A stretch of DNA of 32,000 bases from Pseudomonadota bacterium (GCA_040389085.1 JAZKAP010000023.1:7556-39555), one strand, 5' to 3'. Positions 11,035-26,433 are shown, counted from the first letter of the stretch. Numbers and translations are program-made. Notes: generated by a model not told the origin, from the sequence alone.

Positions 11035-11057
11035 GCTGGCTCCTTTTTTCATGCTGT

Positions 11058-11669
11058 TTACTTTTGAGGTATGTCGGTAATTAGGGTTCTGCGCCGCTGT
11101 CCGGTGAGTCGGTACAAAAGCCAGGCCAGGCCGATAAAGAGCAAGGGCAATGGCAGGTATTTCCAATAGTTGCGCACGCCGACGCGAAACGGAAAGACCG
11201 AGTTCTCCGTCTTTCCGCTGGCCGCATCCGTCGCGCTGAGCAGGCCGATGTACCAGCCGGGCTCGCTGAACCTGTGGTCCAGGGTGACCGTGCCGCGCGG
11301 ATAAGCCTTGGCCGGCAGCGCCACCATCGTCCGCTGCGCGATCCTGCCCGTATCGCCAAGATCCTCGTAGCGTGCCTTGGCACCAAGCCCGTCCGCGTCA
11401 CGCAGGATGCGAAATTCGACCACGCGTTCGCGCAGTGCGGGCTGGATGAAGTCAATCACGATCACTGCCCGTCCGACTTCGGGGATGTCCTCGCAGAACT
11501 CCTGACTGGCACGGTGCTCGGGCTGGTAGCCGGCGAAATGGGCCCGGTCGCTGCCGATGCGCAGAATGCACTTGTCGTCTTCAATGCCGACCCCGCCATG
11601 CGCCCATGCCGATGCCGCAGCCACTGCAAGCAGCGCGGAACTCAACGTTCGGATCAGTCGCATCTGCAT
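11058..11669 (-). CDS. Secreted protein with a C-terminal membrane anchor; candidate PmoD/AmoD-like CuMMO accessory protein
   Basis: ORF 11058..11807 trimmed to ATG 11669, which shares one base with the xmoB TGA (TGATG). Signal peptide MQMRLIRTLSSALLAVAAASAWA is followed by HGGVGIEDDKCILRIGSDRAHF. C-terminal TM helix is YLPLPLLFIGLAWLLYRL. Position and topology match PmoD/AmoD; homology itself is not verified. Confidence 0.55.
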   Translation of the reverse strand: MQMRLIRTLSSALLAVAAASAWAHGGVGIEDDKCILRIGSDRAHFAGYQPEHRASQEFCEDIPEVGRAVIVIDFIQPALRERVVEFRILRDADGLGAKARYEDLGDTGRIAQRTMVALPAKAYPRGTVTLDHRFSEPGWYIGLLSATDAASGKTENSVFPFRVGVRNYWKYLPLPLLFIGLAWLLYRLTGQRRRTLITDIPQK

Positions 11670-12910
11670 CACCCTCCGAACAGCGGAATCATCGGTCCGC
11701 TGATCTCTACTGGATAGCGACGGCCCTGCGCATCGAAGAAGAACAGCATGCCGGCGACCACCGCATCCGGGGAAGCGATCATCGTCGTCATGCGCTGCGT
11801 CTCCCACATCGCATCGTCCGCATAGACCACGATCTTCTTCGTTTCTCCTGGATTGATCGAGCCGCCCTCCACGCGCAACGCGTCTGTCGCGACCAGATCA
11901 TCCTGGTCTTTTGGTGTGACCTTCAGCACCGCGGAATTGATAAAGCGAAGACCGCCTGAGGCAAACTCACCGACGCTCACGGGACTCTTCCCACTGTTGG
12001 TTACCGTGAGCTCGATACGGAAGCTCCGGCCCGGGATGCGGTAGCGTGCATCATCCATAGTGACCAACACTGGCGAAGGCTCCATCTTCAGGGTAGATGT
12101 CCTTATCTTGCCGGTCTGTAGCGGCGTCGTGACCGGCCAGCGCTCGGTGGCATAGAAAAACCCGCCAGCGATAAGCATCAGCGTAGCCACCAGGATAACC
12201 AGTGCCGCCTGACGGTCGCGCGTGGTGATCATGTCGTCGGCGTTCTCACCCAGCGCGCTGGCACGCCGGAACCTCGGCAAGATCAAAGGCACCTTGGTCA
12301 GCCAATAGCCAAACCAGACCAAACCAAGCACAACCCACACCGCTGACCAGGAAGCCGCATTAGCAAAGCCGTGCGTTTCCAAATCAAGGGTTTGGCCGAA
12401 CAACGTTTTGATGCTGTTTTCAAATGCCGCCGGGTCGCCCCCGACCTCGACCCAGATGCCGGGGCCAATCATCGGCCCGGCATCCAGCACGTTGATGATG
12501 GGATGCAGGTGATAGCGGCCGGGTGTGCGGGCCTTCAGCGTGATCTCGAAGTTGTACTGCTCACCGCGCTTATACGAACTACTGCGTATGGTGGGCACAC
12601 CGTTGACGCGGCTGTCCAAGCGCACAAAAGAAGGCCCGGGTACGCCCACATTGAGATAGGCGGTGTCCTCGATGGACGCGACATGCTCCGGCCAGGACAG
12701 GGAAGGAACAAAAGTTCCCTTGACGACCAGAATTTGGTTGACATCGAGCTTGCGCGTCGACAAATCCACGTCAAACCAATGCACGGTGCGCATACGCAAA
12801 GCGGGTTGCTGAGCCTTTTCACCATGGGCATACGTTGGCGTTGCCGAAAACGTGACCAGGACGACGATCAGGCCTTGAATGACTGCGAACAATTTTGCAA
12901 TGAAATTCAT
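11669..12910 (-). CDS. xmoB: Copper membrane monooxygenase subunit B (PmoB/AmoB family)
   Basis: ORF 11669..12967 trimmed to ATG 12910 (AAGGAAGAGG SD). Signal peptide ends PTYA, followed by HGEKAQQPALRMRTVHWFDV. RYHLHPIINV carries the His-x-His. Two central TM helices separate two periplasmic beta-rich domains, as in PmoB. Confidence 0.93.
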   Translation of the reverse strand: MNFIAKLFAVIQGLIVVLVTFSATPTYAHGEKAQQPALRMRTVHWFDVDLSTRKLDVNQILVVKGTFVPSLSWPEHVASIEDTAYLNVGVPGPSFVRLDSRVNGVPTIRSSSYKRGEQYNFEITLKARTPGRYHLHPIINVLDAGPMIGPGIWVEVGGDPAAFENSIKTLFGQTLDLETHGFANAASWSAVWVVLGLVWFGYWLTKVPLILPRFRRASALGENADDMITTRDRQAALVILVATLMLIAGGFFYATERWPVTTPLQTGKIRTSTLKMEPSPVLVTMDDARYRIPGRSFRIELTVTNSGKSPVSVGEFASGGLRFINSAVLKVTPKDQDDLVATDALRVEGGSINPGETKKIVVYADDAMWETQRMTTMIASPDAVVAGMLFFFDAQGRRYPVEISGPMIPLFGG

Positions 12911-12920
12911 GACCTCTTCC

Positions 12921-13673
12921 TTAAACAACTTTTCGCAGCCACACGGCCTTGACACCGAGTGAGCCAACCCAGGCCCAGAACCAGAGGCTTAATATGGTCA
13001 GGAAGCCCGCGAAAACCGCCGTCAACGGCGTGACTGCATCGCCGAATGTCCTCAAAGTACTCTGTTCGATGATGCGCACATATTCGGGCATGGCAGTGCG
13101 GATGTACTCAAAACCCATCACGTCCGCCACCGTCATCAGCGTGCCGTGCATTTCGACCGGCACCATGAACGGAGCCAGCAGTGGCCAGTTCATTGGGTAC
13201 AGAAGCAGCCCCGAAAGAAAGCCAGCAAAAATTCCCGTGAAAAACCAGCTGCGCGTGAGCAGCAAGGTGCAATCGATCAACAGACCAACGCCAATGAAAG
13301 TCGACGGCAGTACCATGTTCATCGGAAAACCCGCGAACTCATGAAAGTTCAAGTACCGGCTCAACCAGCCCGTCAGCGTCAGCCCGATAATGCTCAGCGT
13401 CGCACCCAGAGGTATGCGCAGCAAATGCCAAAAGGCATAGCCAAATACGCCGGGCAGAATAACCAGCACCAATGGCGTGACCAGCGGCCAATAACGGCGG
13501 TCCCGCCAATCGATCCAGTAATCCCAGTCCCCCACCAGCAAGGCAAACTGGAAGGCGAATACGGACCCCAGAAGCACCACAAAGAGCGGAATGACCACCC
13601 AGTCAACCTGGGCATCAACGCGGGCCGCTTCCTGCGGGCTAAAGGCGGCCTCAGCCGGAGTCAAAACGGACAT
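12921..13673 (-). CDS. xmoA: Copper membrane monooxygenase subunit A (PmoA/AmoA family)
   Basis: 250 aa; ATG 13673 with a TGGAGA SD. Carries the family signature GDWDYWIDWRDRRYWPLVTP and is polytopic and hydrophobic throughout. The stop lies 10 nt before the xmoB start. Confidence 0.95.
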   Translation of the reverse strand: MSVLTPAEAAFSPQEAARVDAQVDWVVIPLFVVLLGSVFAFQFALLVGDWDYWIDWRDRRYWPLVTPLVLVILPGVFGYAFWHLLRIPLGATLSIIGLTLTGWLSRYLNFHEFAGFPMNMVLPSTFIGVGLLIDCTLLLTRSWFFTGIFAGFLSGLLLYPMNWPLLAPFMVPVEMHGTLMTVADVMGFEYIRTAMPEYVRIIEQSTLRTFGDAVTPLTAVFAGFLTILSLWFWAWVGSLGVKAVWLRKVV

Positions 13674-13759
13674 TCAAAGTCTCCAGAAATAAATTGGGAG
13701 GTCAAGCGCACAACTTGTCATCGAGACCTAGCCCCGATGCATTTACCCGGAAAGGCGTA

Positions 13760-14539
13760 TCAGAGAGCCGCTTGAAGCTCGGCTTGCGGCGACACCGACT
13801 GCTTCGTCAGCTCGGCCACGCGACCCAGTATCTGCAGGAGCAATCCACCAGCCGCAAACGTAGACCAGCCCAGCAACACAAAGCCATAGTGAATCGGCGC
13901 GGAGAACAACTCCTCGGCATAGAAGAAAGTGTGACCCCACTCGTTGAAACCCACGTTGGGCATGATCATGAACGCGCCGGCGACGATGATCGCGAACGGC
14001 AGCGAAATGCGATTGCCAAAGAGCGGGATGCGCGTGTGAGCGTAGGCGAACGAGATGAAGCCCCAAAACACCAGCAAAGGCACGCAGAAATAAAACAGGC
14101 CAATGTGAGTAGGGGTGAAATCAGTATCCCTAATCGTCACCTGATGCCATGCTGCGTCAGCCTCCGTGTAGATTGAGCCCGTCACATAAAACATGATGGC
14201 AAATAGCAAAATTTGAGCCATCAGCACGAACAGGCGCCGTAATTCCTCTCGCGGCCCGATTCGGGAGAAATCGCGCTCTCGTGTGCGCCAGAGATACACC
14301 AGCGTGCCGGTGCCCAGCGCGCCAATCAGCAGCAACTGCCCGAACAGCAGACGCATCCAGTAAACGTCGAACTCAGCGCTGAAATAGTCGAGCCCGTAAG
14401 TGAACGCAGTCGCTTCTGAATAGATGCGATAAACGCCGAACAGCACCGCAAAGCCCAGCAGTGCAACAAAGAATTTGGCCCACGGAGCCCCTGTGGCCGC
14501 CCGCGCAGCTCCAGTGATGTTGGTAGAACTCGTTTTCAT
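13760..14539 (-). CDS. xmoC: Copper membrane monooxygenase subunit C (PmoC/AmoC family)
   Basis: ORF 13760..14686 trimmed to ATG 14539 (AGGAGA SD). Motifs are EADAAWHQVTIRDTDFTPTHIGLFYF and NEWGHTFFYAEELFSAPIHYGF (Asn/His, then a His 14 residues later), the hallmark PmoC/AmoC motifs. Confidence 0.93.
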   Translation of the reverse strand: MKTSSTNITGAARAATGAPWAKFFVALLGFAVLFGVYRIYSEATAFTYGLDYFSAEFDVYWMRLLFGQLLLIGALGTGTLVYLWRTRERDFSRIGPREELRRLFVLMAQILLFAIMFYVTGSIYTEADAAWHQVTIRDTDFTPTHIGLFYFCVPLLVFWGFISFAYAHTRIPLFGNRISLPFAIIVAGAFMIMPNVGFNEWGHTFFYAEELFSAPIHYGFVLLGWSTFAAGGLLLQILGRVAELTKQSVSPQAELQAAL

Positions 14540-14659
14540 CGTCTTGTCTCCTGTTGTGTGAAGTAAACGTCGGGCCATTGAAAGCCTGCTTGTCGAATGG
14601 CGCGATCGGACTTCGTGCCAATGTGCTGGGAATGTTAGAGCCAAGCGTCTGCAACTACA

Positions 14660-14699
14660 CCTAACTTTCGTTAGGGTGTTTTTCATGGCGCATCGCCAT
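14660..14699. promoter_or_regulatory. Two perfect short palindromes in the xmoC / aldehyde dehydrogenase divergent region (candidate operator sites)
   Basis: CCTAAC-TTTC-GTTAGG at 14660-14675 and ATGGCG-CAT-CGCCAT at 14685-14699. Both lie within the 222-bp region between ATG 14539 (minus) and ATG 14762 (plus). Confidence 0.3.
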
Positions 14700-14761
14700 A
14701 GACTTGCGCCAACCTCGAATTGCCATCACAAAAGAGGACAAACAATATGAAGGAGACAAAA

Positions 14762-16213
14762 ATGAAGCTTGCTTCCCCTGCAATGCATCTTGTAAGCCCG
14801 GGCGAGCCCGTCGAGCAGTCCGAAATAGACCGCATCTTCGCCGCGCAGCGTGAGACGGCCTTACGGCTTCGTCAATCAACCGCCGCGCAGCGGCTCGACA
14901 AGATTGACCGCCTGAAGCGGGCCGTCCTGGCGCGCCAGGCTGACATCCAGCGCGCCGGCGCCCTGGACTTCGGCAAACCAGCCGCCGAGGTCGATCTGAC
15001 CGAAATTCTGCCGGTCGTGGCCGAGGCCAACGACGCGCGTCGCCACCTGCGCCGCTGGATGAAGCCGAACAAGGTTTTCCCCACCCTGTTGATGTTTGGC
15101 ACGTCAAGCTACGTGCAGTGCGAGCCCAAGGGCCGCTGCCTGATCATCTCGCCCTGGAACTATCCCGTCAACCTGACCTTCGGCCCGTTGATCTCGGCCA
15201 TCGCCGCCGGCAACACGGCCATTCTCAAACCCTCGGAGATGACACCGCATCTGTCGGCGCTGATGGCGGAGATCGTGCGCGAGGTGTTTCCCGAAGACGA
15301 GGTGGCCCTGTTCCAGGGCGACGCTTCGGTCTCGCAGGCCCTGCTGGATCTGCCGTTCGATCACATCTTCTTTACCGGCTCACCAGCGATTGGGCGCGTG
15401 GTGATGGCCGCGGCGGCCAAGCACCTGACCAGCGTGACCCTGGAACTGGGCGGCAAGAGCCCGACCATCGTTGACGCCACGGCGGACCTGAAGGCGGCAG
15501 CGGCGAACCTGATGTGGTCCAAATGCACCAACAGCGGCCAGACCTGCATTGCGCCGGATCACGTCTACGTTCATGAGTCAGTCAAGGAGTCCTTTGTCCA
15601 GCACTGCCGGGAGGCCCTGGCCAAAGCCTATGGCGAGGGCGACGCCACGCGCGGCAGTCCGCACTTGGCTCGCATCGTCAACCATAGCCATACCCAGCGG
15701 ATCATCGGACTGCTCGACGACTCGCTGCGCAAGGGTGCCCGCGTGCTCGTCGGCGGACAGCACCAGGCCGATCAGAAGTTCGTGACACCCACCTTGATCG
15801 ACCAGGTCAGCCCAGATGCGAAGATCATGCAGGAAGAAATTTTCGGCCCGCTGCTGCCCGTTATCGCCTACCGCGATCTCGACGAAGTCATCGGCAAAAT
15901 CAACGCCCAACCCAAGCCGCTCGCGCTGTACATCTGGACCAAGAATGGAAAGGTCGCCGACAAGGTGCTGCGGGAAACGAGTTCTGGCGGCGCCTGCGTC
16001 AACCACAGCGTCGTGCAGTTCCTGCACGGCCGGTTGCCGTTCGGTGGTGTCAACAACTCCGGCCTGGGCAGCGCGCACGGGATTTACGGGTTCAATGCCT
16101 TCAGCCATGAGCGCGCGGTCGTCAAAACCTGGCTGTTGCTGGCCTCGACCTTCTACCCGCCCTACACCCATCTGTCGCGACGGCTGATCAACTGGACGCT
16201 GCGTCTGGTCTGA
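14762..16213 (+). CDS. NAD(P)+-dependent aldehyde dehydrogenase, class 3 / AlkH-like
   Basis: ORF 14720..16213 trimmed to ATG 14762 (AAGGAG SD at 14750-14755); 483 aa. Motifs are LELGGKSP (catalytic Glu), NSGQTCIAPDHVYV (catalytic Cys), PWNYPVNL and EEIFGPLLPV. Confidence 0.9.
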   Translation: MKLASPAMHLVSPGEPVEQSEIDRIFAAQRETALRLRQSTAAQRLDKIDRLKRAVLARQADIQRAGALDFGKPAAEVDLTEILPVVAEANDARRHLRRWMKPNKVFPTLLMFGTSSYVQCEPKGRCLIISPWNYPVNLTFGPLISAIAAGNTAILKPSEMTPHLSALMAEIVREVFPEDEVALFQGDASVSQALLDLPFDHIFFTGSPAIGRVVMAAAAKHLTSVTLELGGKSPTIVDATADLKAAAANLMWSKCTNSGQTCIAPDHVYVHESVKESFVQHCREALAKAYGEGDATRGSPHLARIVNHSHTQRIIGLLDDSLRKGARVLVGGQHQADQKFVTPTLIDQVSPDAKIMQEEIFGPLLPVIAYRDLDEVIGKINAQPKPLALYIWTKNGKVADKVLRETSSGGACVNHSVVQFLHGRLPFGGVNNSGLGSAHGIYGFNAFSHERAVVKTWLLLASTFYPPYTHLSRRLINWTLRLV

Positions 16214-16223
16214 TGGTCTCGGT

Positions 16224-16256
16224 TGCACCGAGCTAGCCTGGTGCATTTCTTTTTTC
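16224..16256 (+). terminator. Possible weak intrinsic terminator/attenuator between the aldehyde dehydrogenase and GMC oxidoreductase genes
   Basis: TGCACC (16224-16229) pairs with GGTGCA (16240-16245) across a 10-nt loop. It is followed by TTTCTTTTTTC (16246-16256). Confidence 0.35.
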
Positions 16257-16279
16257 TCTGAATCGCATAGGGACAAATC

Positions 16280-17878
16280 TTGAAATTCGATTACATCATC
16301 GTGGGCGCCGGTTCGGCCGGCTGTGTCTTGGCCAACCGATTGAGCGCGGATCCGTCTAACCGCGTGTGCCTGCTCGAAGCGGGGCGATCCGACGACTCAC
16401 CGCTGATCCGCACGCCCATGGGCCTCGTGGGCTTGCTCGCCACCCGCAAGTACAACTGGTATTTCGACACCGAACCACAAGCCGAACTCGAAGGTCGTCG
16501 CCTGTACTGGCCGCGGGGAAAAACAATCGGGGGCAGCAGCTCGATCAATGCCATGGTCTACATGCGCGGGCACCAGGCTGATTACGACGCATGGGCAGCA
16601 GCGGGAAACGCCGGATGGGCCTACAAGGATCTGCTGCCGATCTTTATGGAACATGAGAATAACGAGCGCGGTGTCTCGACCTACCACAGAACAAATGGAC
16701 CACTGAACGTCGCCGATGTGCGCTCGCCCAACCCGTTGTCGGGCCGCTTCATCGACGCCGCCGTGCAATGCGGCATTCCGCGCAACATGGACTTCAACGG
16801 AGCGCAACAGGAAGGTGCAGGGCCTCACCAGGTGACCCAGAAGAACGGGGAACGCTGGAGCAGCGCTCGGGCATTCCTGCACCCTGTCATGGACAGGTCG
16901 AATCTGACCGTGCTCACCGGCGCCCATGTCACGCGCATCCTGTTCTCTGGCAAACAGGCCGTGGGGGTCGAGATCGAGCGCAAAGGCGAACGCCAGCGCA
17001 TCGAGGCCGAGCGTGAAATCGTGTTGAGCGGCGGCGCCATCAATTCGCCGCAATTGCTGCTGCTGTCGGGCGTGGGATCCAAGCAGACGCTGGCACAGCA
17101 CGGCATCGCACAAGTGGCCGATTTGCCAGGCGTGGGCCAGAACCTGCAGGACCATCTCGACGTGACGGTGATGATCCGCGACCGCAGCAAGCAGGCTGTT
17201 GGCGTAGCACCCGGATTTCTACCGAGAGCGGTCGCCGGGCTCTGGCAATATTGGCGCAGGCGCGAAGGCTTCCTGTCCAGCAACGTGGCAGAGACAGGGG
17301 GCTTCGCCAGGCTCTCGCCGCAATCGGCGCTGCCGGAGGTGCAATTCCACTTCCTGCCAACCTACCTGCGCAACCACGGCCGTGACCTGGCCCCGGGCTA
17401 CGGCGCCACCTTGCACATGTGCCAGTTGCGCCCCCAAAGCCGTGGTTTCATCGGCCTCAAAAGCGCCGACCCGCTGGCCGCACCGATGATTCAGCCCAAC
17501 TACCTGAGCCATGCCGACGACTGGGACGAGATGCTGCGTGGCCTGAAACTTGCGCGACGCATCTTTGAGGCCAAGGCCTTCCACGACATCAATGGCGGCG
17601 AAGTGGCGCCGGGTGCCGGCGTGCGCAGCGACCAGGATCTGAAGGCCTACATCCGGCGCAGTGCGGAAACCATTTACCACCCGGTCGGCAGTTGCAAGAT
17701 GGGCAATGACGACATGGCCGTGGTCGATGCGCAGTTGCGGGTGCACGGGCTTTCGGGCCTGCGTGTCGCCGACGCATCGATCATGCCTACGGTTATCGGC
17801 GGCAACACCAATGCCCCTTGCATGGTGATCGGCGAGAAGTGTGCGCGGGCCATCCTGTCAAGCCACAAACTTCAGTAG
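16280..17878 (+). CDS. GMC-family FAD oxidoreductase (choline/alcohol dehydrogenase, AlkJ-like)
   Basis: TTG start at 16280 (AGGGA SD upstream). Motifs are MKFDYIIVGAGSAGCVLANRLSADPSNRVCLLEAG (Rossmann FAD motif), GKTIGGSSSINAMVYMRG, and C-terminal HPVGSCKMG...VADASIMPTVIGGNTNAP. Confidence 0.92.
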   Translation: MKFDYIIVGAGSAGCVLANRLSADPSNRVCLLEAGRSDDSPLIRTPMGLVGLLATRKYNWYFDTEPQAELEGRRLYWPRGKTIGGSSSINAMVYMRGHQADYDAWAAAGNAGWAYKDLLPIFMEHENNERGVSTYHRTNGPLNVADVRSPNPLSGRFIDAAVQCGIPRNMDFNGAQQEGAGPHQVTQKNGERWSSARAFLHPVMDRSNLTVLTGAHVTRILFSGKQAVGVEIERKGERQRIEAEREIVLSGGAINSPQLLLLSGVGSKQTLAQHGIAQVADLPGVGQNLQDHLDVTVMIRDRSKQAVGVAPGFLPRAVAGLWQYWRRREGFLSSNVAETGGFARLSPQSALPEVQFHFLPTYLRNHGRDLAPGYGATLHMCQLRPQSRGFIGLKSADPLAAPMIQPNYLSHADDWDEMLRGLKLARRIFEAKAFHDINGGEVAPGAGVRSDQDLKAYIRRSAETIYHPVGSCKMGNDDMAVVDAQLRVHGLSGLRVADASIMPTVIGGNTNAPCMVIGEKCARAILSSHKLQ

Positions 17879-17987
17879 ATTCATTCGCATAAAAGTCACC
17901 ACTCCGGAGAGGCGCTATGGCACCTCTCAACACGATACCCGGCCAGTGGCCGGATTTAGCCTTAACCAAAAAACCCAAGGAGACTTC

Positions 17988-19628
17988 ATGAATGGTCAAA
18001 TGATGAGCGCCCCCCTGCTCATTTCCTCACTCATCACCCATGCGGCGCGCCATAGCGGCGATGTGCCCATCGTCTCGCGCCGCGTCGAAGGTGACATCCA
18101 CCGCACCACCTATGCGCAATTGCATGACCGTTCGCGCCAGATGGCCCATGCGCTCGGCGGTCTCGGGGTGCAAGCGTCGCAGCGCGTCGCCACGCTGGCC
18201 TGGAACGGCTACCGTCACCTGGAGCTGTATTTCGCCGCCTCCGGCAGCGGTTCGGTGCTGCACACCCTCAACCCGCGCCTGCACCCGGACCAGTTGCTCT
18301 ACATCCTCGACCATGCCGAGGACCAGGTGCTGTTCTTTGACCTGACCTTCCTGCCCCTGGTCGAGGCCGTGGCGGGGCGCTGCAAGACGGTGCGTCACTT
18401 TGTCGCGATGATCGACAAGGACAAGATGCCGGCGAGCAAGCTGCCCAAGCTGCTGTGCTACGAAGACCTGATCTCGGCGCACAAGCCCGACTTTGCATGG
18501 CCCACCTTCGACGAGAACACTGCCTCGTCGCTGTGCTACACCTCGGGCACCACCGGCAACCCCAAGGGCGTGCTCTACAGCCATCGCTCGACGATGCTGC
18601 ACACCTATGCCTCGCTCATGCCGGACGCGATCTCCATCTCATCGCGCGACTGCGTGATGCCGGTGGTGCCGATGTTCCACGCCAATGCCTGGGGCCTGCC
18701 CTACAGTTGCGCGATGGTCGGCGCCAAGCTGGTGCTGCCGGGGTCGGCGCTGGACGGCAAATCGCTGCACGAACTGATCGCCGCCGAACAAGTGTCGTTT
18801 GCGGCCGGCGTGCCCACGATCTGGCTTGGCATGCTCCAGTATGCCGAACAAAACGCGCTCAGCCTCGCCCCCCTGAAGCGCACCATCATCGGTGGCTCGG
18901 CCGTGCCGCCAAGCATGATGCGGGCATTTGAAGATAACCATGGCATCGAAGTCATCCACGCCTGGGGCATGACGGAGATGTCGCCCCTGGGCACGGTCAG
19001 CCGGCTGAAGCAGAAACACCTGTCCATGCCACTGGACGAACAGCATGCGCTGCTCGCCAAGCAAGGCAAGGCCGTGTTCGGCGTGGACATGCGCATCGTC
19101 GATCCGCAGGGGGTCGATGTCCCCTGGGACGGCAAGACGCAAGGCGATCTGCTGGTGCGCGGACTGTGGGTGGTTCAGAGCTACTTTGGCGCTGATGGTG
19201 CCAAACCCCTGGTGAGTGACGCAGCAGGCGTGCCCTGGTTCCCCACCGGCGACGTGGCCATGATCGACGCCGACGGCTACATGCAAATCACTGATCGCAG
19301 CAAGGACGTGATCAAGTCCGGCGGCGAATGGATCGGTTCGATCGATCTGGAAAACGTCGCCATGGCGCACCCGGCGGTGGCGATGGCTGCCGCCATCGCC
19401 GTGCCGCACCCGAAATGGGATGAACGGCCCTTGCTCGTGGTGGTGCGCAAGCCGGGCGCGGAGGTCACCCGCGAAGCGCTGATTGAACACTACAAAGGCA
19501 AGGTCGCCTCCTGGTGGGTGCCTGACGACGTGGTGTTCGTCGAGGCCATCCCCATCGGCGCCACTGGCAAGATGCTGAAGAACCAGTTGCGTGAGCAGTT
19601 CAAGGACCACCGGCTGCCGGGGGTCTAA
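17988..19628 (+). CDS. Medium/long-chain fatty-acid--CoA ligase, AlkK-like
   Basis: ORF 17841..19628 trimmed to ATG 17988 (AAGGAG SD at 17977-17982); 546 aa. Motifs are [23 protein letters not shown]-loop [55 protein letters not shown] and [10 protein letters not shown]. Confidence 0.92.
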
Positions 19629-19632
19629 AAGA

Positions 19633-19665
19633 TTTGCGGTAAACATATTCAATGAATGCCGCAAA
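19633..19665. terminator. Interrupted hairpin between the convergent ligase and LuxR-type genes
   Basis: TTTGCGG (19633-19639) pairs with CCGCAAA (19659-19665), with an inner ATTC/GAAT stem. On the minus strand it is followed by TCTTTTA, so it is most plausibly the terminator of the regulator gene. Confidence 0.35.
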
Positions 19666-19676
19666 AGCAAGCCCCA

Positions 19677-22364
19677 TCAAACTAGCCAGGCCCGAGTGCG
19701 AGCTTCGCGCAAAGCACCCGTGCGATTTTTCACGCCCAGCTTCGCGTAGATGTTGTGAAGATGCCATTTCACCGTGCCCTCGGTCAACACAAGCCGACCC
19801 GCCACTTCGCCATTGGACAGGCCATCTGCCAGCAGGCGAAGGATCTGCAGTTCGCGCTCGGTTGGTCGCTCCTGGTCCGCGGGCGCCGCATCCTGACGTG
19901 CAGATGCAGCGCCCGCGGCAAGCAGCAGCGTTCGCGCGTATAAAAACGCCGGCGTGGGACTCTGCGGCTTGTCAGCCACGCGGCGCAAAAGGCTCTCCAA
20001 CTCGGGGCCTTCGTCAAGGTACAGGCGCACGTAGCCGTTCGATGCCGCGATGCGAAGGCTTTCCATCACCGCGTCGTGCCCACCCTCGGCATCTCCTGTT
20101 CGCACCAACGCCAGTGAGCGCAGCATCAACAACTCGGCCAGCTTGTGCTGCTGGTGGCTGCGTCGCGCCCTGGCGATGCCGGAATCGACCCATTGCAGAG
20201 CGAGATCGGGCCGCCCCTGCGCGAGATCGAGGCGGGCCCAGAGGCGCTCGGCCTTGTCTCTGTGCAGATTGGTCTGCGGCCCTTGCGGCAGCAACCCATT
20301 ATCGTTGGCCATTTGTCGCGCCGCCTCGACGTCGCCGGCGCGCAACAGCAGCAGCGCACGTTCGGCCACCATCGTGAGCTGCAGGCGCACGAAGCCGCGC
20401 GCCAGTCCCACGCGCTCGCCCTCCGCCGCCGCATCGAGCGCACCGGATATGTCGCCCCGCGCCGCCTGCAGACGTGACGCCGCCACGTAGCCCGCGACCA
20501 TCGCATCGACAATGCCCTGGTGCGGCAGCAGTGGCAGTGCCGCTTCCACTTCCACCATCGCGTCAGTGCACTGGTTGCGTTCATACAGCAGCAACGCGCG
20601 GATCGCGCGCAGCATGGCCGCCAGGCCCGCGGCGCCGGGAGCGAAAGCTGGCTCTTCGGCCAGCGCCGAGGCGCTGTCTGCCAGGGCATCACGATGCCGC
20701 CCCGCCTTGAGCAGCGAGGCGGCCGAGATCACCCGCACCCACATGTGGCCGTAAGGTGAAGGAGCCTCCTCGAACTTCACTTGCGCCTCGCGCAAGGACT
20801 GGGCAGCCTCGGCGAAGCGTCCATTGCATTTGTGCGCATAGGCCAGCACCGTTTGTGCGGCTCCATAGTGGAATGGGTCCGGATCGGGTGGCCCTGCCAG
20901 CCACCGGCGCACAAAGACCTCGGCATCGGCCTCGTTATCACGCAGGCCGGCGATCACGCCGCGCTGAAGGACGGTCGTATGCAGGATCAAGCGAACGCCG
21001 GCTGATTGTCCCTTGCCACAAGCCCGCTCAATGCGCGTCAGCCACGCTGCCGCCTCGGCATAGCGGCGCAAAAACACCAGCGCCCACACCGCTTGCAACA
21101 TCAGCGCGCAGTCTGGCTCCACGCCGCGTGATTCCAATTGCGCGAGCAGGTCCAGGAAGGTCTCGTGCCGGCCCTCGCCCTGCACCAGTTGACGCGCGTA
21201 GCCGGTCAGATAAGCCGACGCCAGCCTTGCGTCATCACCTTCCAGGGCCACGCGGATCGCACGGTAGACCTCGCCCCGGGCATGCCACCATTGCGCACAA
21301 CGCGTTCGCAGTATGCGCACAAACACAGGCCTCAGCCCCATGTCGGCCAATCGCGTCAGTGCGCGCTCCGCCACCAGCGCATGCAAGGCGTAGAACGGCT
21401 CGCCAGCCACGCGTCCCCGACGCTGCACGATGCCCAGTTGCTCGCCTTCGGCGATCGCCTCCGCCCCCTCGGGCGCATCGAGCGCGACCAGCAGCGGCAG
21501 CGTGAAGTCGCCAATGGCGGCCATCACGAACAGCGCCTGCCGTCGGGCCGGCGCGAGGCCCTTGAAGAAGCTCTCGTAAACGAAGCTGTCCATTAGCAAG
21601 TTACTGCTGCCCCCGGCGGCCTCCTGTACGCCCTCGCCGCTGGCGAGGGCAAGCTGTACCAATGCCGGCCAACCCTCGGTGATCCCGACGATATGCTCAA
21701 CCTCTTCGTCACCGGCCGACAGGCGGCGCCGCCGCACCAGTTCCCGCACATCCTGCGCGTCGAGCTTCAGCTCGTGCTGTGTCACCCAGCGTACCAGCCC
21801 GCGCGCGGTCAGCACGGCCAGATCGAAATCCATCCCTTCGCGGCCGCAAACGACGAACCTCAAGTAGTCGGGTGCCGCCACCAACAGACGGCTCAGGGTG
21901 TGAGCGCTCTCGCTGCCACGCAACACATGCACATCGTCGAAGAACAGCACCATGGGACGACGACGTTGGCCAAGGGCCTGCAACAACGCCAGCAAGCCGC
22001 TCTCGACCGCCGCCGTCGCGTCGATGGCACCCATCGCGACAGGCTCCGACGGACCTCCGACTGCATTCAACAAAGAGCGCACAAAGAACACCTGGTCGCG
22101 CCAGGAAGCGTCGAGCCCCACCCACACGGGGTCGGCGTCTTTGCAAGCGCGAAACCATCCTCCCATCAATGTCGTCTTGCCATAGCCGGCCGGCGCAACG
22201 ATGGCCACGATCCGATCACGCATGGACAAGGGCGCAATCGCCCGCCGCGCAACCGTGGCCGTCGTCAGGTCAGGGGGGCCCCCCTCGACTAACGCCTGGG
22301 AGGACGACGCAGCGAAATGGGGCCAGCGAAATCTCGCTTTGGGTTGGGTCATGCCTTCAGACAC
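19677..22364 (-). CDS. Large ATP-binding LuxR-family transcriptional regulator (MalT/AlkS-type, STAND ATPase plus C-terminal GerE HTH)
   Basis: 895 aa. Walker A is IVAPAGYGKTTLMGGW and Walker B is MVLFFDDVH, followed by a long helical-repeat middle. The C-terminal segment TERELQILRLLADGLSNGEVAGRLVLTEGTVKWHLHNIYAKLGVKNRTGA is a LuxR/GerE HTH. Start is ambiguous (GTG 22364 or ATG 22352). Confidence 0.88.
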   Translation of the reverse strand: MSEGMTQPKARFRWPHFAASSSQALVEGGPPDLTTATVARRAIAPLSMRDRIVAIVAPAGYGKTTLMGGWFRACKDADPVWVGLDASWRDQVFFVRSLLNAVGGPSEPVAMGAIDATAAVESGLLALLQALGQRRRPMVLFFDDVHVLRGSESAHTLSRLLVAAPDYLRFVVCGREGMDFDLAVLTARGLVRWVTQHELKLDAQDVRELVRRRRLSAGDEEVEHIVGITEGWPALVQLALASGEGVQEAAGGSSNLLMDSFVYESFFKGLAPARRQALFVMAAIGDFTLPLLVALDAPEGAEAIAEGEQLGIVQRRGRVAGEPFYALHALVAERALTRLADMGLRPVFVRILRTRCAQWWHARGEVYRAIRVALEGDDARLASAYLTGYARQLVQGEGRHETFLDLLAQLESRGVEPDCALMLQAVWALVFLRRYAEAAAWLTRIERACGKGQSAGVRLILHTTVLQRGVIAGLRDNEADAEVFVRRWLAGPPDPDPFHYGAAQTVLAYAHKCNGRFAEAAQSLREAQVKFEEAPSPYGHMWVRVISAASLLKAGRHRDALADSASALAEEPAFAPGAAGLAAMLRAIRALLLYERNQCTDAMVEVEAALPLLPHQGIVDAMVAGYVAASRLQAARGDISGALDAAAEGERVGLARGFVRLQLTMVAERALLLLRAGDVEAARQMANDNGLLPQGPQTNLHRDKAERLWARLDLAQGRPDLALQWVDSGIARARRSHQQHKLAELLMLRSLALVRTGDAEGGHDAVMESLRIAASNGYVRLYLDEGPELESLLRRVADKPQSPTPAFLYARTLLLAAGAASARQDAAPADQERPTERELQILRLLADGLSNGEVAGRLVLTEGTVKWHLHNIYAKLGVKNRTGALREARTRAWLV

Positions 22365-22389
22365 TCAGAAGGCGCACGAAGACGCTGTT

Positions 22390-22821
22390 TCACGCTTGAA
22401 GTCCGGCCGCCCGGAATCGCGGCAGCGACACACCGCCACCGACAGGCTCGCAAACCAGCTCGACCACCATGTCGAAGGTGACCGCCGAAGGGTCTGGACC
22501 GACGAAGGCGCTGATCATCCGCGGACCTTCTTCGAGTTCGACCAGCAGCACGGCATAGGGCGTGTCCTGTTTGAAGGCCGGGCCGGGCGCCCGGTGCACC
22601 ACGCTGAACGAATACACCTTGGCGCGACCGCTGGCGGCGCGGTGCTCAAGGCGCTCGCTACCGCACTCACGGCAGATCGCCTGCTGGTAGAGCTGCACAT
22701 GACCGCACGCAGGGCAGTGCTGCAGCAGCAGCTTGCCCTCCCGAATGCCACGCCAATAGGTTTGCGAATCCGCATCCGGTGTCGGCCGCGGCTTGAGGTG
22801 GGCGTCCTTCGGGTTGATCAC
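22390..22821 (-). CDS. DUF35 Zn-ribbon / OB-fold protein (thiolase-associated)
   Basis: 143 aa. Zn-ribbon is CPACGHVQLYQQAICRECGS, followed by an OB-fold-like VYSFSVVHRAPGPAFKQDTPYAVLLVELEEGPRM. The GTG start overlaps the thiolase-like stop (GTGA, 22818-22821). Confidence 0.82.
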   Translation of the reverse strand: MINPKDAHLKPRPTPDADSQTYWRGIREGKLLLQHCPACGHVQLYQQAICRECGSERLEHRAASGRAKVYSFSVVHRAPGPAFKQDTPYAVLLVELEEGPRMISAFVGPDPSAVTFDMVVELVCEPVGGGVSLPRFRAAGLQA

Positions 22822-24020
22822 AGTGTGGCCTCCGTTCCCAGGATGGTGGTGGCGTTGGTCGCAAAGCCCGCGCCCAGGCTGTGCACCAGGCCGAGTTCAG
22901 CGCCCGCGACCTGGCGTTCACCGCAGCTTCCGCGCAGTTGGTTGACGACCTCGTAGAAATGAAACAAGGAACCCGGCATGCCCGAGTGCGCAAACGACAG
23001 CAGGCCGCCATGGGTGTTGCAGGGAATCGCGCCGCCGTAGGTGATCTGCCCGTCCTCGACGAAGCGCCCACCCTCCCCCTTGGGGCAGAAGCCGAGGTCC
23101 TCCAGCATCATGATCACCGTGCCGGTGAAGCAGTCATAGACCCCGGCCAGGTCGATGTCCTTCGGCCCGCAGCCCGCCATGGCGTAGGCCCTGGCACTCG
23201 ACTGCACGGCGCCCGTGGTGGTCAGCGAGGGCATCAGGAAGATGTGCTCGTGCGTGTAGCATTCGCCGCCGCCCAGGATGTAGATCGGCTTGGCAATGCC
23301 CAGCGCCCTGGCGCGCTCGGCCGAGGTGACGATGAAAGCCGCGCCACCATCGGAGATGAGCGAGCAGTCGAGCTTGTGGTAAGGCGTTGTCACCCAGCCG
23401 GAATTCAGCACGTCATCAACACTCAACTGATCGGTCATCTGCGCGCCTGGCGTGCGCCGCGCATGGTCGCGGTGGATCACTGCGACCTTGGCGAACTGCT
23501 CGGAAGTAGTGCCGAATTCTTTCATGTGCCGGTGTGCGGTCATGGCGAAGGTGTTGGCCACGGGAATGCCGAAGGGCATTTCGTATTGCTGGTCCCGGCT
23601 TTCGGTCATGGAGCGCAGGGCCAGGTCGGGCGACAGGCCGGTCAGCAGGCTGTCGCCGCCCACCACCAGCACGGTCTCGGCCAGGCCGCCGGCAATGGCG
23701 GCGGCGGCGATGTTGAACATCGTCGCCGCCGTGGCGCCCGAGACCTGCAGAGTGTTGGAAAACGTGGGCTGTATGCCCAGGTACTCGCTGAAGGCCACGC
23801 TGAAGCGGTGGAACGGCGAGGCAAAGGCGGAGCTTGAGAGCACGCCATCGATCTGGTGCTTGCCGATGCCGGCGTCGGCCAGCGCCTTGCCTGCCGCGTC
23901 GGCGGCCAACGCGAGCGCGCTCTTGCCCGGCACGCGGCCAACTGCGGAAATGCCTGCGCCGATGATCGCGGTTTTACCCCGAAGCGTATGTGTCGAGGGG
24001 GCGGATTTGATGTTTGCCAT
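22818..24020 (-). CDS. SCP2-thiolase-like protein lacking the nucleophile Cys (possible aldolase-type or non-canonical thiolase)
   Basis: 400 aa. The C-terminal segment NTHGGLLSFAHSGMPGSLFHFYEVVNQLRGSCGERQV aligns with NPSGGL.SKGHP.GATG.....E...QLRG of SCP2 thiolases. The region equivalent to NNNC(S/V)(T/S)GS reads TLQVSGATAATMFNIAAAAIAGGLAETVLVVGGDS, so no Cys sits at the acyl-enzyme position. Confidence 0.8.
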   Translation of the reverse strand: MANIKSAPSTHTLRGKTAIIGAGISAVGRVPGKSALALAADAAGKALADAGIGKHQIDGVLSSSAFASPFHRFSVAFSEYLGIQPTFSNTLQVSGATAATMFNIAAAAIAGGLAETVLVVGGDSLLTGLSPDLALRSMTESRDQQYEMPFGIPVANTFAMTAHRHMKEFGTTSEQFAKVAVIHRDHARRTPGAQMTDQLSVDDVLNSGWVTTPYHKLDCSLISDGGAAFIVTSAERARALGIAKPIYILGGGECYTHEHIFLMPSLTTTGAVQSSARAYAMAGCGPKDIDLAGVYDCFTGTVIMMLEDLGFCPKGEGGRFVEDGQITYGGAIPCNTHGGLLSFAHSGMPGSLFHFYEVVNQLRGSCGERQVAGAELGLVHSLGAGFATNATTILGTEATL

Positions 24021-24046
24021 AACAGGGTTCAGGGGTTGGGGTTGGT

Positions 24047-25684
24047 TCAGGCGGCCGCTGAACGCACACGTTGTCGCAGCTGCGCCTTCAAAATTTTCCC
24101 CACCGGGTTGCGCGGGATGATGTCAAGGTACTCGATGTGTTCGGGCAACTTGTAGGCCGCCACGCCGATCTGCTTCAGGTGGCCGACAATATCCTCCAGC
24201 GTCGGCGGCTGCGCCTTGTCCTTGGGCACGACGTAGATACAGGTCTTTTCGCCCATGATCTCGTCGGGCACCGCCACCGCCGCCACCTCCTGCACGCCGG
24301 GATGGGTCAGCACCAGGTTCTCGACCTCGGCGGCGCTGACGTTGTAGCCACCGCGAATGATAATGTCCTTCTTGCGGTCGAAAAACCCGATGTGGTGCGC
24401 GTCGCGCACGATGAAGAAGTCCCCGGTGCGGCAAAAACCGTCAGGCGTGAACGTGCTTTTCGCCAGGTCCGGCCGCTGGTAGTAGCCGGCAAACACGTTG
24501 GGCCCGCGGTAGACCAGCTCGCCCACCTGGCCCGGCTGCGTGCATTCGGCGTCGACCTCGTCGAGCAGCTTCATCTCGACACCCCGTATGCCCGAGGGCC
24601 ACGCAACGCCCGGAAGACCCCACCACGGAAAGTGATCGGCCCGCTTGGCGAAGTCGGGCACGTCCCGCGCGCCGGCAAACACCGCGGTGCCTTCGGTCTG
24701 CCCCCAGGCATGCAGGATTTCGATGTTCCAGCGCCGCTTGAACTCCTCCATGCTCCAGCGCGAGGGCTGCGCCGAACCCGAGGCGATGCAACGCACGCCG
24801 GAAAAGTCGAGCTGGTCGACGTTGGGCAGCTTGAGAATCATGTTCAGCACGGCCGGCACCAGCAGGGTGAAGTGCACCTGGTCGTGCATCAACTGCTTGA
24901 GCAGTAGCGGCATGTTCAGCGGGTGATGCAGGAGCGTCGTGCCACCGATGGCCAGCGAGGCCAGCCAGGTCGCCACGCCGGTCATGTTGACCACCGGCGC
25001 CGTTGCCAGCACCCGGTCGCCTTCGTGCAGCCCGGCGGTCTGCGGGATCAGGTTCATCTGGAAGAGCCAGTTATTGTGCGACATCGGGCAGCCCTTGGAG
25101 AGGGCTTCGGTTCCGGACGACCAGCACAGGCTGAAAATGTCGTTGGCATCGACGACGATGGCGTCGAGCCGGGCGATGTCAGCCGCACCGCGCGCCATCT
25201 CGGCGATGCGCTCGATCGGCAGCGCGACAAAGCCGGTCTTCTCGGCGATGGCCATTTGGTCGGCGCCCTTGAAATCGCGCATCCCGAAGAAAAAGCGCGC
25301 CTCGGTGAGGTTCTTGACGTTCTGGAACTCATTGTCGCGCCATTGAATCGGCATCGGCGAAAGCACGCCCCCGGCACGGCTGACCGCGAGAAACATGGCT
25401 ACCAACTCCCAGACGTTGGGCAGTTGCACGACGACGATCTCGTCCTTGCGCAAGCCCATGTCCAGCAGCCCGGTCGCGATGGCATCGACCGCTGCCGACA
25501 ACTCCCGATAACTCAGGCTCTGTGCCGCTGTGCCGGTGAGATCCGGCCGATCCGCCGGGTCGACCACGGCGGGCCGCTCCGGCGCCTTGGCCGCCGTCTC
25601 GCGCAGCAAATCGAGCAGGGTACGTCGTCCCCAGTGACCGCTTTCGGTGTAGTGCTTCAAAGCCTCTGTGCTGTGCAGAATCAT
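24047..25684 (-). CDS. AMP-dependent synthetase/ligase (aryl/alicyclic-acid-CoA ligase-like) with a divergent P-loop
   Basis: 545 aa; AAGAGGAGA SD. The N-terminus YTESGHWGRRTLLDLLRETAAKAPERPAVVD resembles the DhbE/EntE-like ligase subgroup. The P-loop reads WSSGTEALSKGCPMSH instead of SSGTTGxPKG. Later motifs are TGDFFIVRDAHHIGFFDRKKDIIIRGGYNV and GKILKAQLR. Confidence 0.85.
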   Translation of the reverse strand: MILHSTEALKHYTESGHWGRRTLLDLLRETAAKAPERPAVVDPADRPDLTGTAAQSLSYRELSAAVDAIATGLLDMGLRKDEIVVVQLPNVWELVAMFLAVSRAGGVLSPMPIQWRDNEFQNVKNLTEARFFFGMRDFKGADQMAIAEKTGFVALPIERIAEMARGAADIARLDAIVVDANDIFSLCWSSGTEALSKGCPMSHNNWLFQMNLIPQTAGLHEGDRVLATAPVVNMTGVATWLASLAIGGTTLLHHPLNMPLLLKQLMHDQVHFTLLVPAVLNMILKLPNVDQLDFSGVRCIASGSAQPSRWSMEEFKRRWNIEILHAWGQTEGTAVFAGARDVPDFAKRADHFPWWGLPGVAWPSGIRGVEMKLLDEVDAECTQPGQVGELVYRGPNVFAGYYQRPDLAKSTFTPDGFCRTGDFFIVRDAHHIGFFDRKKDIIIRGGYNVSAAEVENLVLTHPGVQEVAAVAVPDEIMGEKTCIYVVPKDKAQPPTLEDIVGHLKQIGVAAYKLPEHIEYLDIIPRNPVGKILKAQLRQRVRSAAA

Positions 25685-25761
25685 GATCAGTCTCCTCTTT
25701 TAATGTATTGCCGGGGAGAGGGGAAGACGCATCCGCCGGCGCGCAATCCCGGCAAGCGGAA

Positions 25762-26433
25762 TCAGAAACCGTGAAAGCTGGCGAAGGCCTCCACCTCGGC
25801 ACGCTCGGTTATAAAAGCGTTCTCCGGGGCCGACAGATCCTCGTGCCCGAGGGCGATGCCGCAGGCGAGAATTTCATGGTCGCTGATAGGCAGTTGAGCA
25901 CGCGCCACCTTGTGGTACCAGGCAAACGCCGCCTGCGCACAGGTGTGCAGGCCCTGTGCGCGGGCGGCCACCAAAATGTTCTGGATGAACATGCCCAGAT
26001 CCATGAAGCTGCCGGTATTCAGGCGGCGGTCGAGCGTGACGAGCAGCCCGACCGGCGCGTCAAAGAACGTGTAGTTGCGCAACATCTGGTGCTCACGCGC
26101 CGCCACATCATCGCGGGCGATGCCCAGGGTGGCATACAGACCGAAGCCGCAGCGACGCCGGCGCTCCAGATAGGGTTCGACCCAGGTGGTGGGGTAATAA
26201 GCGTACTCGGGCTGGTGGCGATCAGGCTCGTGCGTGGCCGCATCGATGAATGCCTCGCACAGCCGATGCCGGGCCTCGCCCGCCACCGCATACACCTTCC
26301 ACGGCTGCACATTGTTGCCACTCGGGGCCCGCGCCGCCACGCGCAGGATGTGCTGCACGACCGAAGTGGGTACGGACGTGGATAGAAACCGCCTGACCGA
26401 TTTCCGGCTGCGGATCGCTTCATCGACATGCAC
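25762..26433 (-). CDS. Nitroreductase-family flavoprotein
   Basis: EAIRSRKSVRRFLSTSVPTSVVQHILRVAARAPSGNNVQPWKVYAV and the C-terminal ACGIALGHED are typical of the family. I prefer GTG 26433 (VHVDEAIRSRKSVRRF, family-typical N-terminus, 223 aa). An in-frame ATG at 26544 would give 260 aa but overlaps the divergent gene start. Confidence 0.8.
   Translation of the reverse strand: MHVDEAIRSRKSVRRFLSTSVPTSVVQHILRVAARAPSGNNVQPWKVYAVAGEARHRLCEAFIDAATHEPDRHQPEYAYYPTTWVEPYLERRRRCGFGLYATLGIARDDVAAREHQMLRNYTFFDAPVGLLVTLDRRLNTGSFMDLGMFIQNILVAARAQGLHTCAQAAFAWYHKVARAQLPISDHEILACGIALGHEDLSAPENAFITERAEVEAFASFHGF

Follow-up and report, generated by a model that had tools for sequence, protein, structure and literature searches.

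Catalogues of alkane degraders usually go by the hydroxylase that each one carries (alkB, CYP153, soluble diiron monooxygenase or copper membrane monooxygenase, CuMMO). The locus described here raises the question of whether one downstream gene set, with one family of regulators, can serve hydroxylases of unrelated mechanism. It lies in a 32,000-nucleotide stretch from a Pseudomonadota bacterium (GCA_040389085.1 JAZKAP010000023.1:7556-39555), hereafter the window, in which the CuMMO genes xmoCAB stand divergent from three genes resembling alkH, alkJ and alkK. Our comparisons suggest that the locus is probably one alkane-catabolic unit built from interchangeable modules, with a CuMMO front end and an alk-type back end. 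Open reading frames (ORFs) were taken in six frames and their domains assigned by Pfam and NCBIfam scans; comparisons with Alk, MalT and Bet proteins were made by BLASTP, absences in the window were searched by tblastn at E<=1e-3, and the coordinates of xmoB and the copper genes were transferred from the gene calls of L004, a locus from a Polaromonas metagenome-assembled genome (MAG). The features on which the argument turns are as follows:

14540-14761, divergent intergenic region of 222 bp between the xmoC start (ATG 14539) and the aldehyde dehydrogenase start (ATG 14762)
14658-14678, near-palindrome and candidate operator, core CCTAAC-N4-GTTAGG at 14660-14675, from the intergenic alignment
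14762-16213, plus strand, AlkH-like class-3 NAD(P)+ aldehyde dehydrogenase, 483 aa, Pfam Aldedh
16280-17878, plus strand, AlkJ-like GMC flavoprotein alcohol dehydrogenase, 532 aa, GMC_oxred_N and GMC_oxred_C
17988-19628, plus strand, AlkK/DmdB-family short/medium-chain acyl-CoA ligase, 546 aa, AMP-binding and AMP-binding_C
19677-22364, minus strand, STAND regulator of MalT/AlkS architecture, 895 aa, AAA_16, TPR_MalT and GerE
13760-14539, minus strand, xmoC (CuMMO subunit C), 259 aa, Pfam AmoC
12921-13673, minus strand, xmoA (CuMMO subunit A), 250 aa, Pfam AMO
11669-12910, minus strand, xmoB (CuMMO subunit B), 413 aa, Pfam Monooxygenase_B
11058-11669, minus strand, xmoD-like gene, 203 aa, no Pfam family

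An earlier reading made from the sequence alone (the sequence-only reading) had described an aldehyde dehydrogenase (ALDH), a GMC flavoprotein and an acyl-CoA ligase of 483, 532 and 546 aa divergent from xmoC, and all three were found where it had placed them, as was the convergent 895-aa regulator. It had also put xmoCAB in the hydroxylase position, as borne out by Pfam matches to the subunits in the order C-A-B, with E-values of 7e-72 (AmoC), 6e-76 (AMO) and 2e-122 (Monooxygenase_B). AlkB, rubredoxin and rubredoxin reductase, which it considered missing, were indeed not detected in the window by tblastn with three AlkB proteins, three rubredoxin sequences and an AlkT fragment. Queries for P450/CYP153, ferredoxin, ferredoxin reductase and AlkL likewise gave no match in the window, and no FA_desaturase or Rubredoxin Pfam match occurred among the ORFs scanned.

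The trio was compared with the Alk proteins of Pseudomonas sp. 7-41 plasmid pCP7-41 (NZ_CP089552.1), which carries an annotated alkT-alkS/alkBFGHJKL cluster and was reached with an AlkK probe sequence (80.8% match), the probe serving the search alone. The plasmid region holds alkT, a LuxR-type regulator in the alkS position, an alkane 1-monooxygenase and two rubredoxins, followed by an ALDH, a "choline dehydrogenase", a ligase, an OmpW-family protein and a chemotaxis protein; it is a genuine alkST / alkBFGHJKLN arrangement. Identity to these references was 50.8% for the ALDH (AlkH, 480 aa; 28.8% to Escherichia coli BetB), 55.4% for the GMC protein (AlkJ, 527 aa, 602 bits; 42.3% to E. coli BetA, 405 bits) and 52.8% for the ligase (AlkK, over 540 aa). 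The alkH-alkJ-alkK family order proposed earlier therefore matches the order on pCP7-41, at 51/55/53% identity, and the NCBIfam rankings of genuine AlkH, AlkJ and AlkK are those of the window proteins. Within the ALDH, whose ORF spans 14720-16213 with a likely start at ATG 14762, 5 nt past AAGGAGA (alternative ATG 14747), the catalytic motifs NSGQTCIAPDH, LELGGKSP and EIFGP are conserved with AlkH. Its "class 3" label agrees with its best solved relatives, namely rat class-3 ALDH (1AD3), fatty aldehyde dehydrogenase (4QGK) and ALDH3A1 (3SZA). The GMC gene, located between the ALDH and ligase genes, encodes a GAGSAG FAD motif and both GMC signatures. AlkJ is a membrane-associated, quinone-linked GMC alcohol dehydrogenase; no AlkJ structure was present in the PDB copy searched. 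By subfamily the window enzyme is AlkJ-like, and it may oxidise primary aliphatic alcohols with transfer of the electrons to ubiquinone. A terminator-like hairpin followed by TTTCTTTTTT occurs at 16224-16245, inside the 66-bp ALDH-GMC gap, and might serve in internal attenuation or in mRNA stability; terminator counts in the window were not above shuffled expectation.

Automatic annotation would assign the GMC enzyme and the ALDH to a BetA/BetB pair converting choline to glycine betaine, as the database names read "choline dehydrogenase" and the NCBIfam "choline dehydrogenase" subfamily model PRK02106 scores 646 bits against a cut-off of 605. However, genuine AlkJ also scores above the cut-off for that subfamily and receives the same label, so that the automatic name carries no weight. 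The betA equivalog model reaches only 554, under its cut-off of 732; the GMC protein is 42% identical to BetA compared with 55% to AlkJ, the ALDH is of class 3 and 29% identical to BetB, and neither betI nor betT nor any other bet gene was found nearby. The betaine reading is hardly credible and is effectively refuted by the identities to AlkJ and AlkH over those to BetA and BetB.

The AlkK-like appearance of the ligase N-terminus and P-loop, pointed out earlier, was confirmed, since the N-terminus aligns with AlkK MIGQMMRQPLIISSLIEHAARYHG (shared pattern MxGQMM..PL.ISSLI.HAAR) and the P-loop is identical to that of AlkK. A second alternative arises from the same protein: the ligase may be a DmdB, and the locus may act on organosulfur or other short acids (3-methylmercaptopropionate, for example) and not on those derived from alkanes. 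The 3-(methylthio)propionyl-CoA ligase equivalog PRK07008 is matched at 967 bits (cut-off 822), the RefSeq name of the JS666 orthologue is 3-(methylthio)propionyl-CoA ligase, and the best solved relative, ahead of 1ULT, is 6IHK/6IJB (691 bits), itself a DmdB. Yet PRK07008 is also the top NCBIfam model for genuine AlkK (798 bits, just under the cut-off), and hence it is unable to separate AlkK from DmdB; the two types evidently belong to one family, and the chain-length preference of the ligase is not fixed by sequence alone. Furthermore, the ligase shares 53% identity with AlkK and occupies the alkK position behind AlkH- and AlkJ-like genes, the best plasmid-collection matches to the GMC gene each adjoin an AlkK-like ligase gene, and no dmdA/C/D candidate emerged in the window scans, although no search was aimed at dmdA/C/D. 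On context, an organosulfur role is accordingly very improbable.

If the trio belongs with the CuMMO, the arrangement should recur, and synteny in relatives showed that it does. The identical XmoA was found on many contigs assigned to Polaromonas (AET17H-212, AER18D-145 and several MAGs), and Rhodoferax, Hydrogenophaga and Acidovorax carry XmoA relatives at 88-97%. The trio is divergent from xmoCAB in all four genera and on metagenome contigs, that is, in every fetched Comamonadaceae locus with XmoA at least 88% identical, and this recurrence indicates that the arrangement is not a chance adjacency. Contigs retrieved through the GMC protein extended the linkage, with ALDH-GMC still divergent from xmoCAB at 80% and 70% XmoA identity; the ALDH/GMC identities diverged in parallel, being 83/80% at 80% XmoA and 72/75% at 70% XmoA. 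Past the ligase, the flank is of two types, carrying either the regulator and a DUF35/thiolase pair (the window type) or an OmpW-family gene and a branched-chain-type ABC transporter. In four related loci, the OmpW-family gene is 30-33% identical to AlkL and occupies the alkL position after the ligase. Where the contig is long enough, the close loci also contain xmoD, a pyrroloquinoline quinone (PQQ)-dependent alcohol dehydrogenase (PQQ-ADH), a small ORF (orf163) and the genes DUF2147, CopC and CopD, in the same order DUF2147, CopC and CopD fusion in all close relatives. The corresponding features of the window are the following:

8869-11052, minus strand, type II quinohaemoprotein alcohol dehydrogenase (PQQ and haem c), 727 aa, Pfam PQQ and Cytochrome_CBB3
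8125-8580, minus strand, DUF2147, Pfam
7742-8110, minus strand, CopC, Pfam
5648-7741, minus strand, CopD / cytochrome c / AhpC-TSA fusion, Pfam

As a side observation, the window fits none of the fetched loci L001-L010 end to end over 8792-23630. Positions 8792-17863 are 98.6% identical to L004, which has the OmpW flank, and the regulator flank is ~95% identical to L002/L003; these mixed best matches suggest recombination between locus variants.

The clearest sign of modularity is an exchange of the hydroxylase on plasmid 2 of Polaromonas sp. JS666 (NC_007950.1, 52.5-66.2 kb), where a PQQ-ADH gene is divergent from ALDH (90.5%), GMC (91.9%) and ligase (88%) genes, followed by the regulator gene (91%). 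The JS666 DNA is 88.7% identical over window positions 14541-19623, covering the intergenic region and the trio, 78% identical over the PQQ-ADH gene and 89% identical over a thioesterase remnant (window 5433-5598). The JS666 regulator is cut by an IS6 element, its C-terminal half being kept at 91% protein and 90% DNA identity. The stretch from the PQQ-ADH gene to the divergent region is taken up by 3.4 kb of xmoCABD in the window and measures 86 bp in JS666; the window xmoCABD lies between the PQQ-ADH gene and sequence that in JS666 is the region upstream of PQQ-ADH. Across the PQQ-ADH gene, in place of DUF2147, CopC and CopD, JS666 encodes a CYP153A P450, a ferredoxin reductase and a ferredoxin. 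This P450 is PDB 7ANT, with the CYP153A7 alkane hydroxylase as the next-best match; it turns octane into 1-octanol, and a mutant hydroxylates butane (PMC8479775). JS666 also retains the last ~90 bp of xmoD upstream of PQQ-ADH (77%, with a 5-bp indel; L060 12075-12166, window 11061-11147) and ~290 bp of the copC/copD junction (L060 9581-9785, window 7682-7970). By these remnants, the JS666 P450 locus is derived from a CuMMO locus, part of which was deleted and replaced.

Related genes are also found beside alkB. The GMC gene next to alkB-rubredoxin in Fontimonas thermophila encodes a protein 65% identical to that of the window, and the Rugosibacter and Fontimonas clusters together with JS666 bear out the modular-hybrid reading of the earlier account. 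Comparison of these loci therefore suggests that CuMMO, P450 and AlkB can stand in for one another at the opening step of alkane breakdown.

Regulators of one family accompany many of these clusters. The domains of the window protein are a Walker A ATPase (AAA_16, APAGYGKT), a MalT-like TPR region and a C-terminal LuxR/GerE helix-turn-helix, so the AlkS-type architecture claimed by the sequence-only reading stood (Walker A, TPR_MalT, GerE, 895 aa), whereas orthology to AlkS at the sequence level did not: identity to pCP7-41 AlkS is 22.7% over 794 aa (120 bits), and E. coli MalT (75 + 52 bits) is roughly as distant. For comparison, the AlkS proteins of GPo1 and Alcanivorax borkumensis are 32% identical (PMC8784404). 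A 70% homologue in a Rugosibacter MAG is divergent from an alkB-OmpW-ligase-reductase-GMC-ALDH operon; a 66% homologue on the metagenome contig L064 is convergent after xmoCABD <> ALDH-GMC-OmpW; a 52% homologue lies directly upstream of xmoCABD-PQQ-ADH in L014/L015, two Burkholderiales MAGs without the trio; and a 36.5% homologue in F. thermophila is convergent after alkB-rubredoxin-GMC-ligase-WS/DGAT. A 50% homologue in L068 precedes an OmpW gene, with a distantly related xmoCAB (XmoA 43%) ~3.5 kb downstream. A 41% homologue in Panacagrimonas had no hydroxylase within 10 kb, and the family is therefore not exclusively linked to hydroxylases. By association, the window protein is classed as an alkane-cluster regulator. 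A separate observation concerns L068 (1-22592; ENA ctg28258), which also carries two genes of the pyridine-nucleotide-disulfide oxidoreductase family with dimerisation domains, a short-chain dehydrogenase/reductase (SDR) gene and a sulfonate-type ABC transporter; this gene set recalls coenzyme-M epoxide pathways, and its CuMMO may thus be alkene-oxidising.

A candidate for the site at which such a regulator acts was found in the divergent region, which is 79-89% homologous to the PQQ-ADH/ALDH intergenic region of JS666 plasmid 2. The near-palindrome CACCTAAC-TTTC-GTTAGGGTG is the best-conserved intergenic block in the alignment of Comamonadaceae loci and JS666, and the xmoC-proximal flank of the alignment is split into two diverged types. 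Short-armed palindromes were found by a custom scan; a repeat search with a minimum length of 12 missed them. The palindrome is present in a single copy in the window, with its centre 94 bp away from the start codon of the ALDH gene and 128 bp away from that of xmoC, and it occupies the same position in all close loci and in JS666, with a one-base variant in L013. Variants recur at promoter-like positions: in L064 at two sites (the xmoC/ALDH intergenic region and upstream of a ligase-2/regulator operon), in L014/L015 in the gap that separates xmoC from the 52% regulator, in L035 ahead of xmoC, in JS666 as CCTATC-TAAA-GATAGG ~123 bp upstream of the CYP153 ATG, and in Rugosibacter (L067) between alkB and the 70% regulator. 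The second L064 site recalls AlkS autoregulation; unlike L064, the window has no second palindrome ahead of its ligase-2. An exact CCTAAC-N4-GTTAGG was located in the gammaproteobacterium Sinimarinibacterium sp. CAU 1509 (L018, 19689-19704). Leaving aside two sites in L017, the matches had intergenic, promoter-like locations, save for an apparently chance hit inside copD (L063/L064). The relaxed pattern fixes 9 bases, giving an estimate of ~9 chance matches in 1.2 Mb over both strands. Its variants upstream of xmoC, alkB, CYP153 and the regulator operon make the palindrome a candidate operator, and co-occurrence suggests that the regulator is its partner. AlkS, an activator of the LuxR/MalT family, switches on PalkB and its own promoter by binding upstream of each to an inverted repeat of a form typical for LuxR-family proteins; the review that describes this names no LuxR/MalT regulator for any CuMMO (PMC8784404). 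The palindrome might lie ~40-45 bp upstream of a start site guessed from a weak TAGACT at 14700-14705; a sigma-54-type promoter was rejected by eye, its spacing being unfit. Apart from these results, the L018 palindrome lies ~125 bp upstream of a four-ORF minus-strand run ending in a 65%-identical GMC gene, ~3 kb downstream of xmoCABD genes, and no regulator homologue was present within the 20 kb examined there.

Of the CuMMO proteins, encoded opposite the trio, subunits A and C fall short of the NCBIfam ammonia/methane equivalog cut-offs, which is consistent with a divergent CuMMO lineage that is neither ammonia nor particulate methane monooxygenase. The xmoC start was assigned to ATG 14539, with AGGAGA ahead of the start codon; a 308-aa ORF with 49 more codons (14540-14686) was rejected as an ORF-extension artefact because the added stretch is homologous to non-coding DNA in JS666. 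An xmoD-like gene is directly downstream of xmoB in all related loci. The earlier account of the gene cluster was right in the genes that it listed but missed the 727-aa PQQ-ADH directly downstream of xmoD. This enzyme scores 687 bits with TIGR03075 and 1256 bits with 1KB0 (quinohaemoprotein alcohol dehydrogenase of Comamonas testosteroni), and it carries a CVFCH haem motif and a hydrophobic, signal-peptide-like N-terminus. Together with the GMC enzyme, it brings the alcohol dehydrogenases of the cluster to two. DUF2147, CopC and the CopD fusion are presumed copper-handling accessory genes. In six of six close relatives, orf163 (157-165 aa) lies between the PQQ-ADH and DUF2147 genes; its product has a signal peptide and is His-rich (AEHAHGGHGSHAM), and it may therefore bind metal. 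In the window (8580-8869) it is mostly missing, and only its final 32 codons are left (remnant 8700-8795), implying a deletion of ~0.45-0.5 kb.

The PQQ-ADH opens a third alternative, in which the trio is a general alcohol, aldehyde and fatty-acid module for another hydroxylase, encoded elsewhere in the genome, or for exogenous alcohols, the CuMMO has only the PQQ-ADH as its partner, and the adjacency reflects a catabolic island. The PQQ-ADH gene is co-oriented with xmoCABD and begins 5 nt past the xmoD stop, with the trio on the opposite strand; L014/L015 combine xmoCABD, PQQ-ADH and the regulator with the trio missing; and JS666 pairs the same trio with a P450. On the other hand, the trio and xmoC have one short control region and one conserved palindrome in common, and in L063-L065 ALDH-GMC is still divergent from xmoC even though PQQ-ADH is absent. 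The co-divergence of ALDH-GMC with xmoCAB down to 70% XmoA further argues for selection on the linkage. We therefore regard an independent module as unlikely, albeit less so than the organosulfur reading.

Under the preferred reading of one alkane-catabolic unit, XmoCAB(D) would hydroxylate an n-alkane, with copper presumably supplied by CopC, the CopD-cytochrome c fusion and DUF2147. The alcohol would be oxidised by the periplasmic PQQ-ADH, the AlkJ-like GMC flavoprotein or both, the AlkH-like class-3 ALDH would convert the aldehyde to the acid, and the AlkK/DmdB-type ligase would yield acyl-CoA for beta-oxidation. Both divergent operons would share the 222-bp control region with its single conserved palindrome. 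On the model of AlkS, the convergent STAND regulator could bind this palindrome and act as an activator that responds to alkanes or alcohols. More speculatively, a quinone-reducing AlkJ-type enzyme could feed a quinol-dependent CuMMO, which would explain the absence of dedicated electron-transfer genes. Of this scheme, the comparisons show the gene content, the subfamily similarities, the synteny, the conserved palindrome and the occurrence of the back end with CYP153A or AlkB in relatives; the enzyme substrates, co-transcription, the regulator-operator pairing and electron coupling are what we infer.

Several observations weigh against this unit. As a rule, xmo loci whose XmoA is 76% identical or less lack the trio, and the pairing is therefore clade-restricted. 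The L063-L065 CuMMO loci have no AlkK-like ligase; since ALDH-GMC accompanies xmoCAB down to 70% XmoA and the ligase is missing there, the ligase is the latest addition to the CuMMO module. On the DmdB equivalog model, the window ligase also outscores AlkK. Physical coupling to xmoCABD is seen for the PQQ-ADH gene and not for the GMC gene. Regarding control, identity between the regulator and AlkS is a mere 22.7%, and the regulator is not in the immediate neighbourhood of four near-identical loci (L001, L004, L005 and L009), in which OmpW and the ABC transporter take its place and the palindrome is retained with no adjacent regulator. Additionally, no sigma-70 consensus site was detected in 14540-14761, and the sigma-70 and terminator scan gave nothing that exceeded shuffled expectation.

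A bolder extension is that the CuMMO is functionally interchangeable with CYP153 and AlkB on liquid medium-chain n-alkanes as well as C2-C4 gases, through a distinct clade of MalT/AlkS-like sensors acting at CCTAAC-N4-GTTAGG and with AlkJ-type electron return to the quinone pool. Hints in its favour are a back end ~90% identical to the JS666 one, which serves an octane-hydroxylating CYP153A, and the AlkL-like outer-membrane channel gene in sister loci. We hold this extension to be tentative and on balance doubtful, if somewhat less so than the independent module.

Past the regulator come genes for a thiolase-like/DUF35 pair, a second ligase and an acetyl-CoA-synthetase-like enzyme. Positions 22390-28513 partly match L064 11527-16471, where a nitroreductase gene accompanies that for a second acyl-CoA ligase, 79% identical to its counterpart in the window, and the acetyl-CoA-synthetase-like ligase recurs in L063, a sister contig of L064. 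The left edge of the conserved locus is disrupted: a PaaI-thioesterase remnant (5433-5598, 89% to JS666) adjoins an HTH_Tnp_1 ORF (4948-5370) and a C-terminal fragment of a DDE transposase (4173-4610), at a place where relatives have an intact thioesterase and two SDR genes.

The CuMMO lineage has already been published, and modular shuffling of catabolic genes is well known; this is not a new kind of biology. The literature search returned no paper pairing copper-monooxygenase with alkH/alkJ/alkK terms and no paper for "xmoCABD", with Rochman et al. 2020 (ISME J 14:714) falling outside that search. That work aside, three points may be new to the searchable literature: the flanking genes as equivalents of alkHJK(L), a regulator family and palindrome common to AlkB, CYP153 and CuMMO clusters, and the in-situ replacement, with sequence scars, of a CuMMO by the JS666 P450. 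In this locus and its relatives, one back end and one family of regulators accompany three mechanistically unrelated hydroxylases. To our knowledge, essentially no transcriptional control has been defined for CuMMOs; the locus offers a testable candidate regulator and operator, useful for biosensors, which, if true, would give a CuMMO its first defined transcription factor with a matching operator. It also offers a genomic signature that could separate alkane-oxidising CuMMOs from methane and ammonia monooxygenases in metagenomes, as well as a natural experiment on CuMMO chain-length range and electron source.

Among known systems, the OCT-type alkBFGHJKL cluster shares with the window the ALDH-GMC-ligase order at near-identical lengths (483, 532-552 and 546 aa), a large ATP-binding regulator of the LuxR/MalT family and an inverted-repeat operator (a candidate one in the window), and its OmpW/AlkL-like gene after the ligase is paralleled in some relatives of the window. 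In contrast, the window has a CuMMO on the opposite strand instead of AlkB, rubredoxin and rubredoxin reductase, a regulator convergent to the ligase instead of an alkST unit, and an extra periplasmic PQQ quinohaemoprotein alcohol dehydrogenase with copper-handling genes. The JS666 CYP153A locus has the same scaffold (PaaI thioesterase ... PQQ-ADH <> ALDH-GMC-ligase, convergent regulator; proteins 80-92%) and the palindrome at the same position of the divergent region, with a related palindrome of its own at CYP153, but it lacks xmoCABD save for decayed remnants, and the window has the orf163 remnant, DUF2147, CopC and CopD at the place of the JS666 CYP153A, ferredoxin reductase and ferredoxin genes. 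The alkB clusters of Nevskiales and Rhodocyclales-type bacteria, here the Rugosibacter MAG (DATCQI010000126) and Fontimonas (FOOC01000020), encode GMC (64-65%) and ALDH (63%) relatives and a MalT-type regulator, which is convergent in Fontimonas (36.5%) and divergent from alkB in Rugosibacter (70%), where an OmpW gene is also present and alkB is preceded by a related palindrome; they differ in having AlkB with a rubredoxin or ferredoxin-reductase-type partner, ligases at 35-48% identity, and neither copper genes nor PQQ-ADH. The CuMMO (xmoCABD) clusters of Rochman et al. 2020 come from the same genera, Polaromonas and Rhodoferax, and the CuMMOs of those alkane-utilising Betaproteobacteria were reportedly tied to ethane and propane use by isotope probing and reverse transcription PCR.

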